A DNA stretch of 50,870 bases, counting the filler, from Basidiobolus ranarum (taxonomy: Eukaryota), in the NCBI GenBank assembly GCA_040143965.1. It is 2 parts of 2 records of this genome, joined end to end, with 100 filler letters (N's around TTAATTAATTAA, not from the genome) between each part and the next. Parts side by side here need not be neighbours in the genome. Positions count along the whole stretch, not along the records: positions 25,614 to 50,870 come from JASJQH010000143.1; 1 more part is not named here. One strand, 5' to 3'. The position numbers and the translations under genes are program-made. Of the stretch, positions 3,301 through 44,663 are shown one piece after another (position 1 is the stretch's first letter; each line of letters starts with the position of its first letter). Under the pieces are notes generated by a model. That model did not search any database. It had not been told where the DNA came from and worked only from the letters and a program-made list of their open reading frames with translations.

Positions 3301-3856
3301 GTCCCATATTTGAAATCCGTCAGTATATCCTAATAATAAGCATAGTCTGCTAGTTGCCAGGATATAGGTGATAGTATAGTTAATTTGTAAGGATATGTTT
3401 CCGATCAATTAGTTTAGTAATTGGTGAAAGTTACCGATGAGAACTGGAGTCTGTACTATTATGACTAAACTGTCCGGTAATCCAACTAAAACTGGCGTAG
3501 GTTACAGTTTTCTTACGCTCAGGAGTCATCATTCCACCTTCTCCAGGAGAGCCTCTGGTGGTGTTGTAAGGAGAATCAAGTTTAATGGAGGTTCTTTTAA
3601 CACGTGAGAGTGACTCCGGAAGACTATGTGCTACATAAGTTGAGATTCCATGAAGCACTGAGCTAATGCTATGTAAAGAGGTGGGGTCTCTAATAAATTT
3701 ATTGGATAAGTGAATATTAGTAATGTGAAGAGGTGACACTATGACTCCTCATAATCTCTACCTAAAATATTTAGGCTCTGCTTTCACTCTCATGGTCGAA
3801 GTGACTGCTTCACCAGAATATTTTTGTAACTTATTGGATTCGTTTGTTCTTGTCAT
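394..3856 (-). CDS. BCAS3/ATG18-related WD40 beta-propeller protein (multi-exon; start uncertain, a downstream ATG encoding MRVKAEPKYF is an alternative)
   Basis: Spliced frames give LLLGYTDGFQIWD, AHHHAIAALAFNMSGSLLVTAS, HLYKLARGYTSAHVEDIVFSPDSKWLAVSTGRGTTHIYAINPYGG and the BCAS3-type WLSQTEISTY…LWNSSQF; GT-AG introns join ORFs 3431-3739, 3163-3408, 2560-2832, 2321-2563, 1526-2275 and 394-750. Confidence 0.85.
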
Positions 3857-14112: not shown

Positions 14113-16701
14113 TTATTCCATTCCAAGTGACCAAAAAGGTGGAAGACCCGAGCCTTTAATATTGGCCTGATCAAGCTTCGATTGGGACGGTTCAGTGGCT
14201 TGAGTAATCTTACTCAAAATCTCTTGATTTAGACCTGGGCCTCGAGTGGAGGCTTTCTCGGCTGCCATTGAAACACTTACTAAGGCTAGTATACGCATTT
14301 CTTCTTGACTTACCTCGGAGTGAGAGTTTGAGCTTTCATTTAGTAGAATCAATTTACCCGTTGAAAGATCAATATGTCGCGCTAAATATTTGACTATTGC
14401 ATTGTCTAGTCTTACTCCTTGAGCAGTCTGGTGTTTCCAAAGTTCGACATTGATGTTGGAATTCTGAATCATCCTTGTCAACAACGACCAATAGATCATG
14501 TTTTTTGTGGTTTGGTGATGAGCTTTTACATCAACGGAATCCTCACCTTTAGAGGTTCCTTTAGTGATCGTCAGTTTCTCATAAGGTTGTAACAGGTTTA
14601 GTTCGAACTGCTTCCCAATTCTCATTCTACTCCAATTAGATGTATGAAGGAATAATCGAACATCCCCTACAAATCCCGACAGAGCAGCAACTTGAAAATC
14701 CCTAAACGTTCCCCGATGATCCGAATATCTGGTTGTATTCTTGGTTTCTGGTGAAGTTATCAAATGAACAAGATAACGATTAGCCATTGCTACCATTTGA
14801 CTGTATTCCTTGTGAGTGACTGCATTTGTTCTTCTCAATAATCGAATGGCATCAAGAAAGTATGAGAAATCAGTCTCTTGAGGTATCGATTCTAGGCGTT
14901 GCCACAGTGGTGTAGGTGGACTTGGAATTGTATCCCAAGCCTGATTTGGTGATTGATTATCTTCTTTGGTTGGATAGTTTTCTACTTGATAATTCCAAAG
15001 ATGTGTTCGACCAAGAATATTACGACGCAATAGATTACCTGCCCAAGAGCCGTATTTCTCCTCACCGGTGAAATAGGAGGCAAGAGTAAGGATTGTAATA
15101 TCATTGAATAATGTTTCCAAATCGGGTGGTCTAGATGGGTTATTCACCTCTAAAGTCTTGACTGATGTAGGTTTTTGCAAATGAAGTTCCGATAACATAC
15201 TATCGATAATATTTTCTGCCTTTTTTTGCAGTTGTTTAACAGTATTTAAGATTTTCTCCTCACCAGACCAGTATTTCAATCGTTGTTGTCGAAGTTTAGT
15301 TTCATTATACATTAGTAATGTGTCGGAATTGAAGCGATTTCGTGCGATCTTTTCATCAATCGAATCAATGAATTGTTGGACCGCAAGTAAACGATTATAG
15401 GCACGCATACGTGTGGCCTCTTTGGTGTTGGTTTCTTGGTTCATTTGTCCCGAGAATAATCTATACACCCATCCAGAGGTTATGAATTGCCCCTTCTCTC
15501 TAGAATCGGGTCGTTCTCGAATCTCCCAAGGTACAATGTCATGAGAAGTATCACGCAATTTGTAAGCTCCAAGTCTCCATAAAAGTTCCAACTAAGATCA
15601 TAACAATATATGAGTAAACCTTGTAGACATCTTTCCCAATTCTATAGAAATATCCATATATCTATGTATATATAAATCTATTACCTTGGGTCTTCTCCCG
15701 TAACGCATTTGAGCGTTAAACATTTCCGTAGCATCAGCTCTAAATATGAGTTGAGGTTCTTGATTTGCATCTGGACGATCTTCAGAGTTCATGATCACTT
15801 CGGTGTTATTGAGTGCTCTCACCATAGGAACCACGAAATATTTATATGTTTCTCCATATAGATCTAAGTTTCTACGAACTTCATTGAAGGCTTTCCTTGT
15901 GAAGAAACAATTCCCATCAAAAGGAAATATCCATTTTGGATTCAAACGTTTCCCGTGTTGTAAAGCAAAGTTACGTCCACCATTCTACATGAAAGTAAGT
16001 TAACTTAGTAAGTAAAAAGTTAAAAGAGTGAAAAAAAGGGTGCCTTTCTTTATACATACATTATTCATAACGTAAAGATTCTTGTTATGATATGTAAAGT
16101 CAATAATTCTTAACTTTCCCATATTTCCCAAAGAACTAAATTCTTCCGACCTAAAAAAATCTGATACTGGAAATTCCTCGTAACGAAACTCTTTCTCTAA
16201 ATATTCCTCTTCTATAAACGGTATTCTCGTATATTTTTGGTGATAACGTTTCAATAAATCGATGAGGGCTTGTTCTTGGTCTGGATCCACAATTCTATTG
16301 AGTATCCACCACTTTTCTGTATCTGGAAAGGTGGGCTCATGTTGAAGTATAAACTGAACATTATGCAACGTTTGACCAGGTTTGTGACGTGGGGGAAGGT
16401 CGTTTCCTAGAATTCGATATAAGAGGATCTTTTCACTGGGTAGAGTTGGTATCGAAGTGAATATGTGAAGTGGAAGGTCGGATAGATGATATGAAATATA
16501 AAGATAACTGCAGAGAGCAGCTAGCATACAAAGACCCGTCACATAAAGCAGTCTCTTTAAGCATGCATGGGTACGAAACACACTTCGACGTGGGGATTTG
16601 TGTACACTGTAAAAAGGTAAATGGTGGTCATCCTGGGGTGACGTCATGATGGTAATGTTAGTACCTCGAGTGCGACGTGACTTAGGTGACTCTATCAACA
16701 T
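14113..16701 (-). CDS. Type II membrane protein with a glycosyltransferase-like (GT-A) region and a C-terminal alginate-lyase-like domain, 3 exons
   Basis: ATG 16701; single TM (LLYVTGLCMLAALCSYLYI); LLYRILGNDLPPRH, YVMNN|NGGRNFAL, WIFPFDGNCF, YGRRPK|LELLWRLG; C-terminal YFLDAIRLL and DHRGTFRDFQVAAL; introns 15985-16059 and 15592-15684. Confidence 0.75.
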
Positions 16702-25513: not shown

Positions 25514-25613
25514 NNNNNNNNNNNNNNNNNNNNNNNNNNNNNNNNNNNNNNNNNNNNTTAATTAATTAANNNNNNNNNNNNNNNNNNNNNNNNNNNNNNN
25601 NNNNNNNNNNNNN
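25514..25613. other. Artificial assembly gap/linker: 44 N + TTAATTAATTAA + 44 N
   Basis: Exactly 100 bp, with a palindromic all-frame stop cassette in the middle. Confidence 0.95.
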
Positions 25614-31228: not shown

Positions 31229-32296
31229 CTATACGGCAAAATGCGGACGAGTAATTTGCAATTGACAAAGCAGTGCTATTGTTTCCCCAAAATAAGTATT
31301 GTCATCTAGCTCTTCCATCTCCTCCTGAACTTTGTGAAGCTTAGGATGATTAATAAGCCATAAAGAAAGAGCAGCAGGGGCCAAAAAGGCAAGATCCGTG
31401 TAATCAACTAGTTCTTTACCGTTCAGTTTGTAGCCAGCCTTGATTTCCGATTGGTGGGAAAAGAAGTTTGCTTGGGCTTGAAGTATGGGATATACTCGGT
31501 TATCTTTAGATTCGAGGTAATAAATCACCAGACGCCAAGGAACTCTACAACTATTCCAACTGTAGTCTTTATCGTGCTTGCTCTCCAATACTTCCCCCTT
31601 CACCGGTACGTAGAAATGGCCATCGTATTCAAGAAAGTCTGCAATCAAGCCGGTTTGAGGGTGGAGAGATAATTGATGCTCAATAGTTCGAATAGTGGCT
31701 TCCAAAACTCTAATCCATCCGTCTCTCCTTTCTGAAACATCTTCCCTTGAGAATAAGAGTAAATGTGTCAGAAGAAAATCCGAGGGACGAGTGATCTTGT
31801 CGAATTTGGTGCCTTTCTCTACCCAATCTCCTAAGCGAAACATACATGTATTCCAGTTAACACAATGCTCATAAATAGCCCTGCAAAGAGATATGGCTCT
31901 TTCCTTGTAGGATGGATTGCCCCAGGTTTTTGCTGCGATGAACAAGGCGGCCGCGATGTCTAGATCACCATCAGTGGCACAGTTCTCACCACCATCAGGA
32001 GAGTTAGAGATTTTCCCAGAGTGGGGGTCTATCACCTGCTGCCAGGCCATGAGACCTTTCTTATTTCTAAAACTGTCAAAATAATGAACCAAGCAATCGA
32101 AGTCCTGTTGATTTCCTTTCAACACGGCTATCAGCATACCGTAACCGTGCGCTTCGCTACAGGTTATAGGCTTAAGTTTTCCAATTTTCTCGATTTCATC
32201 TTTATCGTTGTAGTAGATATAATAACTATCTCCATTGGCCGAACGAAGGTATCTATTTCTCCAGGCGACATATTTCTGTTCAATGAATTGATTCAT
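31229..32296 (-). CDS. Glycoside hydrolase family 8 (GH8b-like chitosanase/licheninase/endoglucanase), intronless
   Basis: TCSEAHGYGMLIAV (catalytic acid Glu), ATDGDLDIAAAL, LGDW, TRPSDF, TGLIADF, LES…YSWNSCRVPWR. Confidence 0.92.
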   Translation of the reverse strand: MNQFIEQKYVAWRNRYLRSANGDSYYIYYNDKDEIEKIGKLKPITCSEAHGYGMLIAVLKGNQQDFDCLVHYFDSFRNKKGLMAWQQVIDPHSGKISNSPDGGENCATDGDLDIAAALFIAAKTWGNPSYKERAISLCRAIYEHCVNWNTCMFRLGDWVEKGTKFDKITRPSDFLLTHLLLFSREDVSERRDGWIRVLEATIRTIEHQLSLHPQTGLIADFLEYDGHFYVPVKGEVLESKHDKDYSWNSCRVPWRLVIYYLESKDNRVYPILQAQANFFSHQSEIKAGYKLNGKELVDYTDLAFLAPAALSLWLINHPKLHKVQEEMEELDDNTYFGETIALLCQLQITRPHFAV

Positions 32297-32827
32297 GTTA
32301 GATTGCGTGGATTGGAGTACTTGTCCAACTTATATACTCATTTGCTATCCGTAAATTCTTCCAATCCGAACCAATCTAGCTTTGATACTCGTAACCAAGA
32401 TCTCTGAATGGACTAAGAATTGCGTGAAGTATCTATTGAACGGCGCCTCTTTAGCCACTAAATAGGCTCTCTAGTCAGACATTACTTTATTTGGCGTATT
32501 AGGAGCATTCTTTTCGAATCATTACATAATATATTCTATAGATCAATCATTTAGCCAACGGTAAAAATACTGATCGCCAAGAGCTTTCATCCACTCTGCC
32601 TGTATGCCAAATAATACATAATTAGTATCTTTATATGCATCCCCAAAGATCTTAGTATGCATCCTAGGCTTATATTTGGATTGGATTTCTAGGATTATGA
32701 ATGTGTTGAATAAACCAGATGGAATCAATTCAATCTGTCTTTCTGAATAGATAATCAACTAAAATATTAGGTTGGAATGAAATAAGAGTATAGCCGAGAA
32801 ATGAGGAGGAGAATTTTTCGACCAACC

Positions 32828-33421
32828 ATGCTTCCAATCCTTTCTAACCGTTTGAAGGCTTTGGCACTTAACTCTCAACGACAGAATTACACTACAGCCG
32901 TCCTAAATGGTCCGGTTTATCTCAGTATGGAGAAAAAGGTGAATTTCATATACAAGTATCCTTTTATATTGTGAAGATACTTAAGTTTTTCTTTTACTCA
33001 GTTGTTAGAAAGTTTAAAACCTGAAAAACTTGATATCATCAACGAATCTCACTTACATGCCCACCACGAACCCATGCAAGGTGTAACCAACAAAGAGACT
33101 CACTTTAGGTAGGGTTTTTTTCGTAATTTATGAGGAGTTATGGTTGAATATGTACTTATATCCTTTTCCTTTAGAGTCAAAGTAGTCTCGGAACAGTTTG
33201 AGGGCAAGGTAATTTTCTCAGAGTACTTTCACGTTGACTTTTAATTCCTTATTATAATAGTCGTGCCACTATTTCTCAAGTCTAAACAAATTGTCTTTGC
33301 TCACTAGAGTCTTATGCAACGTCATCGTATGATTTATAGCCTACTAAATGAGGAGTTCGCTCAAGGTCTGCACGCACTCGCTCTTAGAACCAAAACACCT
33401 CAAGAAGTACAAGCCAAATAA
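32828..33421 (+). CDS. BolA family protein, probably mitochondrial (Bol1-like), 4 exons; absent from the ORF track
   Basis: [23 protein letters not shown] (presequence-like)…[32 protein letters not shown]…[49 protein letters not shown]. Confidence 0.93.
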
Positions 33422-33741
33422 CTTGTGTATAGTGCATTGATATCCTTTCAACCATCAAAATAAAAGGAATTTTTGGGAGTTGATTTGAATTTGCACGCTA
33501 TTCATTGTGTAGATACTAGATATTTATCTTACAAAAGAATTCATAATATGAACTACCCAGATGTATATTTCGTACAAATAGAAATACTAGTGATAATCTA
33601 TTAAAATCCATGGTGAATGCCTAAAAACTATGAAATGATGCGAATTTGGAAACTAACGTCATTAATGCTGGTGCTTTAGAGGGGAATGTTAGAAGTCAAA
33701 GGTTAATGTTGTTCTATATTATAAAGAGGAAAATGCATGTC

Positions 33742-40945: not shown

Positions 40946-42170
40946 TTACTCGTCATAGTCAACCTCTTCGTTCGTAGGTTCTTTCGGCTCTAGATCTTCA
41001 CCATATTGCATTGCATTATCAATTTGGGATAAGGTGTAGGTGATCGAATCCTCATCACTTGGGTTCAAGGGGATGAAGTTGACCATATTGTAATCATCGA
41101 TCTGTGAATAACATGGAACTGTTTAGATCACAAACCAATTAGGCGTTGAATGAGAGATGTGGAATACTTTACCAGCTGAACGATGGCTTCATTAAGACTA
41201 TGGAAACGAGAACTAGTGTGAGCATTTACATCATCAATCAACAAAGAAGGATCCGTCTCCAAATATCTATCGAGCTCTCTTGGGTTGATGGCGGGGTTGA
41301 CAAGGTCCATTTTAGACATGACATTGATATGTGGAATTTCTAGATTGATCATGGCCGACATTGCACTCAAAACTCCAGAAAAATATTTGGATTTGTCTTC
41401 GATGAATTGACTCTCTAAAAGATAAACTCCACATATGCTGAAATTCCATCGTTGTAAGGTCTCGCACATACGCTTCATAATGGGGAAGTGAGTATATAAC
41501 TCAATTTGTCCTTATTGGTGTGGTAATAAAAGCAAGTGTTAAACTTTTGGACGAGAAAAAATCCTCAATAATAAATCGAGCTTTATATATACCAGGACAG
41601 TCTATGATAAGATAATCGTCCTCGTAGTCACCAAGTTCTTCTTCCAACCAGTCTATATTGTTTAGAAGGAATGTGGATCTACGTTAAGGATAATACTTCA
41701 AATAAAATGGTATAGTAGTTTGTATGTTTAAATGAAAGGATATTCAAGACAGTAGATCAGGCCACCATTTGGTCCGTAGTCTAGTTCCTCCATGACATCT
41801 TCTAGGGTGATAAGCTCACGAATATCTATGAAATACATATGTTTAGATAAAGAGTTCTATAGGGAATTGGTAATTGAATCGAGGTACCAATGCTGGGGTC
41901 ATAGGTGAAACGCTCAGCAGCAGGATCCAAGTTGACCAAGTGGACAGATCGGCCAATATTTTGACAGTGTGTCATGATTGTTGAACAGAAAGTAGACTAC
42001 ATAAGCTTAATTAAAACTAAGGCAAAACAAGCACGAAAAATAACCACAATTTACCTTCCCGCTTCCAGCAGGGCCCATAACCAACTGACAGTGCTTACCC
42101 CTATACGAATATCATGAACAACTTTTAGAAAAGGATTCTCTATATATGTATATTTGCGAACTTATTACAT
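40946..42170 (-). CDS. GPN3: GPN-loop GTPase 3 (RNA polymerase assembly/import), 7 exons including one U12 AT-AC intron
   Basis: [86 protein letters not shown]. Confidence 0.96.
41673..41743 (-). other. U12-type (minor spliceosome) AT-AC intron, 71 nt
   Basis: 5' site ATATCCTTT, branch point TCCTTAAC (41683-41690), 3' end CAC; removal restores the GPN3 frame. Confidence 0.92.
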
Positions 42171-43591: not shown

Positions 43592-44663
43592 TTATGAGGA
43601 GGCACCGTAGTACATGTGTTGAACGTCAACTAATTTCTTGCCACGGGCTTTGGCAATTTGCTCAGGGTCTCTTTGCTTTTGAAGCGCTTCAAATGTAGCT
43701 TTGATGACATTGATGGGGTTACGGGAACCGCGAACCTTACTGCTGATATCTTGGATTCCTACACATTTGCAGATCTCGTGAACGTACAAATTGGATCTGT
43801 TGCCAAAACCTACATATAAATATGATTAGATGAGCCACATATCCGTCGAGATGTATACGCATTTACTTTACCAGGAGGTCTAGAGAATAATAACAAGTTG
43901 GTGGCCTTGAATTTATGCTCAATATCGTGGAACAAGGTTCTGTCATCATAACGATCAAAGTAAATGATGTTCTTGATGGCACGAAGGGTTGCTTTCTGGA
44001 CAGCTCTACCGGCATCAGAGTCCTTTCCTTCGCCATAACCAGCAGCACCGTTGCCATTTCCGACAACTACAAGAGCAGACATGGAGGGAATTTTACCCTT
44101 TCTAGTCATATTAACGGTTCTTCTCATGGACAATACTTTCTTTTGTAGACCACGGAACTGTTCATATGTGATACCAAGCTCCTCGGAGTAAACGAGCTCC
44201 TCGTCAACGGTTTTAGCTACCTCTGGAGGGGTGCTTGGAATAGGACGAAATCCGAATTCATCCTCAGATTTATCCAAGAAGATATCCTCTTCTTCTGGAG
44301 TCAAATGATCAAGGACTGGATCGGTTTTCGAAAAATCAGGAAGTAATTGGGTGGGATCATTGATACGAAGTCTACGAGGCTTGCCGTTGGGGTGAAACTT
44401 GGGAACAACCTCAACGTTTTGAGTTTGGGAACTGGAGAAATTTCTATTGAAACCAACAGATATAGTTCCTCTAGCTAGAATTATGGTTGTTTCAGAAGTG
44501 TACAGTTAGTTAAGAATATAGAAATAGGTAAAACCAGAACCATACAATATATGACTATTAACGCATATATTTATGTTTATCAGTAAAACTCACCAAAGGT
44601 CCCAAAAGCTTGGGTGCTACGAGCGATTTTAAGTACTTGAAGGCCTCGGGTAAGCGAATTCAT
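43592..44663 (-). CDS. MRPS5: Mitochondrial ribosomal protein uS5m, 3 exons
   Basis: Presequence-like N-terminus; VNMTRKGKIPSMSALVVVGNGNGAAGYGEGK, RPPG|FG, GIQDISSKVRGSRNPINVIKA. Confidence 0.93.

Follow-up and report, generated by a model that had tools for sequence, protein, structure and literature searches.

A very probable U12-type AT-AC intron in the GPN3 gene of Basidiobolus ranarum

Minor (U12-type) introns have already been described in the genus Basidiobolus. In the survey of Larue and Roy (2023, PMC10639083), Basidiobolus meristosporus has 249 minor introns (0.554%), the highest density given there for a fungus, and the ancestor of the Zoopagomycota is reconstructed as having had a low density of minor introns. 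For Ascomycota and Basidiomycota, the same survey finds no minor introns that are convincing. B. meristosporus has 237 minor introns in the count of Olthof et al. (2024, PMC11347168), who report finding U11, U12, and U6atac; they describe its U4atac as putative and divergent, and seen only at a lowered threshold. U12-type introns have also been documented in Rhizopus and Phycomyces (Bartschat and Samuelsson 2010, PMC2846911). According to Turunen et al. [quoted passage not shown] In the same account, the optimal distance from the branch point to the 3′ end is 11-13 nt, either of the two adenosines in the branch motif can be the branch point, and mixed termini (AT-AG or GT-AC) are disfavored.

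We analyzed a stretch of DNA from Basidiobolus ranarum (50.9 kb, hereafter the window) that includes the gene GPN3. In all likelihood, the intron between exons 4 and 5 of this gene is a functional member of the canonical U12-dependent AT-AC subtype. The closest described introns are the minor introns of B. meristosporus, which are from the same genus and of the same class. The GPN3 gene of that species (K493DRAFT_333186) is orthologous and lies in a seemingly syntenic region, and its protein, from strain CBS 931.73 (P0001), has the same CLE|FLL junction. The two cases differ in species, and the proteins have diverged somewhat: protein identity is 92.6% for GPN3 and 85% for the frame of a GH31 glucosidase that the window also contains, and the B. 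meristosporus counterparts of these two are probably on one contig. We infer the type of the B. meristosporus GPN3 intron from one source, the correctly joined protein model. More distant parallels are found in Rhizophagus irregularis and other early-diverging fungi, which are reported to have U12-type introns, outside the Dikarya, with a consensus like that of animals and plants (PMC10639083, PMC2846911).

A working minor spliceosome in B. ranarum, as proposed by an earlier note on this DNA, would agree with the published work on B. meristosporus. We view the GPN3 intron as an ordinary member of a class that is already known from Basidiobolus. It adds nothing new to the biology, as publications already cover both the minor splicing of Basidiobolus and its loss in Dikarya. 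The main texts of the literature, which are what our search covered, do not mention a minor intron in GPN3 (gene-level lists are in the supplements). An Rfam scan of the 50.9-kb window gave no matches at the gathering score and none at E ≤ 0.5, which is uninformative about the rest of the genome, and there are no tRNA genes in the window. The coordinates of the GPN3 features are given in Table 1.

Table 1. Features of the GPN3 locus, in window coordinates
Feature	Coordinates	Strand	Details or basis
Whole GPN3 coding model, seven exons	40946..42170	minus	813 nt in frame, 270 aa
Exon 1	42170-42169	minus	coding model
Exon 2	42100-42055	minus	coding model
Exon 3	41996-41888	minus	coding model
Exon 4, with GPN motif, ends ...GGLIYCL-GA	41744..41825	minus	PF03029 frame and alignment
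AT-AC intron of GPN3, very probably U12-type	41673..41743	minus	71 nt, phase 2, 27% GC; only gap-free candidate of 75
5′ splice site ATATCCTTT (intron +1 to +9)	41735..41743	minus	sequence; consensus from general knowledge
Branch-point motif TCCTTAAC	41683..41690	minus	exact match to consensus from general knowledge
Candidate branch adenosines	41685 and 41684	minus	12 and 11 nt to intron end
3′ terminal dinucleotide AC	41673..41674	minus	sequence
Exon 5, starts A-TTC-CTT	41593..41672	minus	PF03029 frame and alignment
Exon 6	41510-41173	minus	coding model
Exon 7	41101-40946	minus	coding model
Deposited B. ranarum GPN3, P0241 = K7432_004243, 153 aa	40946..41487	minus	exact substring, model residues 118-270

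The identity of the gene is supported by several kinds of similarity. The spliced model aligns to the B. meristosporus protein over 270 of 270 residues without gaps, and UniRef labels that protein as a GPN-loop GTPase. Four of the exon frames match the Pfam family PF03029 (ATP_bind_1) in colinear order, at profile positions 10-47, 44-74, 74-103, and 100-210; the frame of the last exon has no match to this profile at E ≤ 0.01. Proteins of this kind have a P-loop (GxxGxGKS) and a Gly-Pro-Asn motif, and in the spliced model these are GPAGSGKS (residues 10-17) and GPN (residues 70-72). Among the best matches that are named, the names are GPN-loop GTPase 3, ATP-binding protein, or Fet5. From PF03029 and the names of the best matches, we identify the gene as probably GPN3 (GPN3 / Fet5) rather than GPN1 or GPN2. 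The five other introns are all of the GT-AG type, with intact splice sites, and are 58-82 nt long.

The start codon of GPN3 is apparently split by an intron, with AT at 42170-42169, a 68-nt intron (GTAATAAG...TATAG) at 42168-42101, and the last base of the codon (G) at 42100. Upstream of Gly2, the frame of the exon lacks an in-frame ATG (from stop to stop, it begins YSYRGKHCQ...), and the homologues, including P0001, begin with MG[KR][HY]xQ. The alternative start would be Met9. Another observation concerns the intron after exon 5. P0291 (122 aa), which is 83% identical to exon 6, reads through the intron there, as DCPG|KLQPV...GSS|GQIELY (compare 41511-41592 on the minus strand). This suggests another Basidiobolus-like genome with an intron at the matching phase-1 position.

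The intron between exons 4 and 5 begins with ATATCCTTTC and ends with ...TCCTTAACGTAGATCCAC (minus strand, 41743..41673). It splits a glutamate codon as GA|A, between the end of the upstream exon (...TGT CTT GA) and the start of the downstream exon (A TTC CTT), and the protein reads ...C-L-E|F-L-L... across the junction, in phase 2. Reading through the intron gives YPFI and then a stop, four codons past exon 4. The earlier note had placed an AT-AC intron of GPN3 here, and we recovered exactly the same coordinates and sequence.

U12-type introns have a 5′ consensus of A/G-TATCCTT, counted from +1, and a branch-point consensus similar to TCCTTAAC. This intron has ATATCCTTT at its 5′ end and an exact copy of TCCTTAAC, which bears out what the earlier note had said of both sites (the consensus strings being general knowledge). 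The note had also put the branch point about 10 nt from the AC end, and the measured distances, 12 and 11 nt, are close to that. A nearer AG, at 41679, is only 5-6 nt from the candidate branch adenosines. Minor introns are reported to be biased away from phase 0 (PMC10639083), so the phase of the GPN3 intron fits. The exception is the pyrimidine content: over the 20 nt that lead up to the final dinucleotide, the pyrimidine fraction is 0.60, and it ranges from 0.55 to 0.65 among the other five introns of the gene (GT-AG), so the lack of a polypyrimidine tract does not discriminate between intron types within GPN3. All of the other U12 features that can be tested at the level of sequence are present. 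The earlier note's reading of the intron as U12-type is thus supported by the 5′ site, the branch motif, the spacing, the termini, and (as discussed below) a unique gap-free junction.

The termini by themselves do not settle which spliceosome removes the intron. Introns other than those of the U12 type can also have AT-AC termini (PMC3584512), so this could be one of a rare subclass of AT-AC introns that are removed by the major (U2-dependent) spliceosome. Such introns have the same termini but are described as lacking the extended U12-type 5′ and branch motifs (PMC3584512), whereas the GPN3 intron has both (its branch motif being TCCTTAAC), together with a short distance from the branch point to the 3′ end. 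Furthermore, a minor spliceosome is documented in this lineage (PMC10639083, PMC11347168). We consider it very unlikely that the major spliceosome removes this intron.

Another way to join exons 4 and 5 would be for the major spliceosome to remove a larger GT-AG or GC-AG intron (such as 41750/41653 or 41762/41653), which would leave GPN3 shorter by 9-13 residues. The earlier note had asserted that the frame could not be restored here by any GT-AG pair. We enumerated every AT-AC, AT-AG, GT-AC, GT-AG, or GC-AG pair that links both exon frames without a stop codon, and the assertion was incorrect: the 75 pairs that keep the frame comprise 32 AT-AC, 16 AT-AG, 11 GT-AC, 11 GT-AG, and 5 GC-AG pairs. 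Nevertheless, the conclusion that was drawn from it still stands, given how the products of these pairs align. Only one of the 75 pairs, 41743/41673, gives a gap-free alignment of 55 residues to six homologues, with a mean score of 273. It is followed by 41743/41679 (AT-AG, score 261) and 41741/41683 (AT-AC, score 259), and these add 2-4 residues that are absent from all of the homologues (two extra residues in the case of 41743/41679). No GT-AG or GC-AG solution loses fewer than 9 conserved residues: among the GT-AG pairs, the best is 41750/41653 (9 lost, score 204), and among the GC-AG pairs, the best is 41762/41653 (13 lost, score 188).

The residues that would be lost are well conserved. 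We aligned the model with the best 120 of 1,299 homologues, and 105 of the 121 rows have no insertions or deletions from 12 residues before the junction to 18 residues after it. Near the junction, the conserved residues are C (in 112 of the 121 rows), E (106), L (117), N (114), D (111), and W (117). The best GT-AG and GC-AG pairs lose CLEFLLNNID or more, which is conserved in 106-117 of the 121 sequences, and their donors (GTCTTG and GCCTGA) are poor. On the PF03029 profile, too, the two exons meet at the junction: the match to the exon-4 frame extends to position 74, where its last residue is a read-through Tyr, and the match to the exon-5 frame starts at position 74. In favor of the larger introns, the GPN3 model from Diversispora eburnea (P0015) reads YGPNG|DWL, which is the exact product of the window's cryptic pair 41762/41653. 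However, this pattern is more simply explained as a gene finder's workaround. Overall, removal of a larger GT-AG or GC-AG intron seems extremely unlikely, and the AT-AC pair is the one that we retain.

It is similarly hard to credit that the gene is a pseudogene or an assembly error and that the 71 nt are an insertion that is never removed, as might be imagined from the deposited annotation, which has just the C-terminal 153 aa: when precisely this stretch is cut out, the protein is full-length again and aligns to its orthologue without gaps (92.6% identity), all five of the other introns keep their GT-AG sites, and a random insertion is unlikely to have both U12 motifs, the right spacing, and a widely shared intron position.

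We also asked if the U12 motifs could have arisen by chance. RTATCCTT is present 7 times in the window, as compared to 5.5 expected copies, and 32 of 100 shuffled sequences reach 7 copies. TCCTTAAC is present twice, as compared to 2.0 expected copies. We then considered a combined pattern, with the 5′ motif, the exact branch motif, and either AC or AG at 9-15 nt past the branch adenosine. If the length is limited to 150 nt, then the combined pattern is found in 61 of 1,000 windows that were simulated with a first-order Markov model (about 6%), and if lengths of up to 1,000 nt are allowed, it is found in 117 of 300 simulated windows. Because neither motif is enriched and the simulations also produce the combination, the motifs alone are just suggestive. 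The decisive point is that the combination of motifs coincides with an exon junction that is defined by homology.

None of the other sites in the window is a credible second minor intron. Two of the RTATCCTT motifs lie in introns of a BolA-like gene at 32829-33421 on the plus strand, which has three short introns, and a third lies just past its stop codon; we consider all three to be chance occurrences, none of which would work as a splice donor. The motif at 32956(+) is inside an ordinary GTGAAT...CAG intron, and using it as a donor would break the frame. The motif at 33158(+) is at the 3′ end of another intron. The motif at 33440(+) is the one past the stop codon, and its sole downstream partner is a branch motif with one mismatch and an AG, 240 nt away. 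No branch motif lies within 300 nt of the motifs at 3396(-), 10188(+), and 37598(+). Finally, ATATCCTCT at 44282(+), which is accompanied by a branch motif with one mismatch, falls within the span of a 231-aa ORF on the other (minus) strand, and that ORF has a match to ribosomal protein S5.

The AT-AC intron helps to explain why the database entry for this gene is truncated. The deposited protein (P0241) begins at Met118 (...PIMKRM..., in exon 6), which is the first Met downstream of the AT-AC intron. (We computed its start coordinate by arithmetic, as the Gln of QIELY is at 41508 and the Met is 7 codons further.) It covers the C-terminal 57% of the gene, and although its name in UniRef is GPN-loop GTPase 3, it has neither the P-loop nor the GPN motif: gene finders limited to GT-AG cannot bridge the AT-AC intron, and the deposited model begins 3′ of it. 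The earlier note had expected standard gene predictors to mis-model this gene. This is the case in B. ranarum, where K7432_004243 was cut to 153 aa, but not in B. meristosporus, where P0001 is joined correctly as CLE|FLL. One practical use of our finding is that it explains the truncated entry for B. ranarum and corrects it.

Similar problems are seen in the models of other early-diverging fungi. The Glomeromycota models P0246, P0015, and P0267 are cut or deleted near the position of the Basidiobolus junction, as judged from the proteins alone. P0246, from Rhizophagus irregularis, joins PSI|EYEDDY near the junction; P0015 is the Diversispora eburnea protein discussed above; and P0267, from Geosiphon, begins at the Met that corresponds to the start of the deposited B. 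ranarum model. The proteins from Jimgerdemannia (P0003) and Podila horticola (P0012) have a deletion across the junction. As circumstantial evidence, these models would fit an intron without GT-AG termini at this position in those fungi as well. If so, minor introns may systematically lead to truncated models in the genomes of Glomeromycota and of other early-diverging fungi.

To see if the same intron position is used more broadly, we considered a sample of 240 GPN3-like proteins, of which 162 contain the motif at the start of exon 5. For 108 of these 162 proteins, the residue at the junction is Glu (104) or Asp (4), and the sequence before it is homologous. Another 10 have Glu at the junction but fail our strict pattern for the upstream sequence, and three of these (P0074, P0105, and P0352) are homologous by eye. 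The junction residue is Lys in two cases and Gln in one. In the others, it is Arg (35/162) or Ser (6/162), and the sequence upstream is unrelated or absent. Arg or Ser is the residue expected at the junction if a phase-2 intron that ends in AG is read through (AG plus the first base of the exon). The proteins of this kind with a named source are from Moesziomyces antarcticus, Puccinia graminis, Pneumocystis jirovecii, Phlyctochytrium planicorne, and Dentiscutata erythropus; the protein from P. graminis is a second variant, with an in-frame insertion.

The corresponding signature of an AC-ending intron would be Thr, which is what results from reading through the window's own AC (the frame is RRST-FLLNN). 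Thr was at the junction in none of the 162 proteins. Similarly, Glu-Tyr-Pro, the signature of reading through a U12-type 5′ site, was not found at the junction in any of the 240 proteins; two proteins match it at an unrelated C-terminal site. From these signatures, we infer that an intron with the identical position and phase occurs widely among fungi and that, outside of Basidiobolus, it ends with AG. In Dikarya, any intron at this position must be U2-type, because Dikarya do not have a minor spliceosome. The GPN3 introns of Dikarya and of other fungi would thus be alike to the Basidiobolus intron in position and phase and would differ in ending with AG instead of AC.

How this difference arose can be read in two directions. 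The bolder reading is that the Basidiobolus state is derived, so that an intron once of the U2 type became a U12-type AT-AC intron. It draws on the contrast between the high density of minor introns in Basidiobolus (0.554%) and the low density in the ancestor of Zoopagomycota. If true, this would be a conversion from U2 to U12, opposite to the usual direction, and it would suggest by what mechanism Basidiobolus came to its apparent gain of minor introns. We consider this reading unlikely. The more conservative reading is that the ancestor had the U12-type intron and that other lineages changed it to U2-type. Either way, GPN3 provides one well-conserved position at which, by comparing genomic loci, the switch between a U12-type AT-AC intron and an AG-terminated intron could be followed across the fungi.

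Given established knowledge of the minor spliceosome, we can propose how the intron would be removed. The U11/U12 di-snRNP would read both sites jointly, with U11 recognizing ATATCCTTT and U12 recognizing TCCTTAAC. One of the two adenosines in the branch motif would bulge and become the branch point. The U4atac/U6atac.U5 particle would then enter, and U6atac would take the place of U11 at the 5′ site. The AC that is 11-12 nt downstream of the branch adenosine would serve as the 3′ site, and joining GA|A would restore the frame of GPN3. If the intron were not spliced, translation would stop after four codons, and the product would end shortly past the GPN motif and would lack the C-terminal ~190 residues.

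The rest of the window contains other features of note. Two N runs (44 nt each), at 25514-25613, join two contigs. On the minus strand, a 366-aa frame without introns, at 31229-32329, matches glycosyl hydrolase family 8 (E = 1e-23), and a 492-aa frame without introns, at 14113-15591, matches alginate lyase (E = 1.4e-8). Horizontal transfers of bacterial-type genes have been reported for Basidiobolus. Both of these families are typical of bacteria, and the two frames may be horizontally acquired genes.
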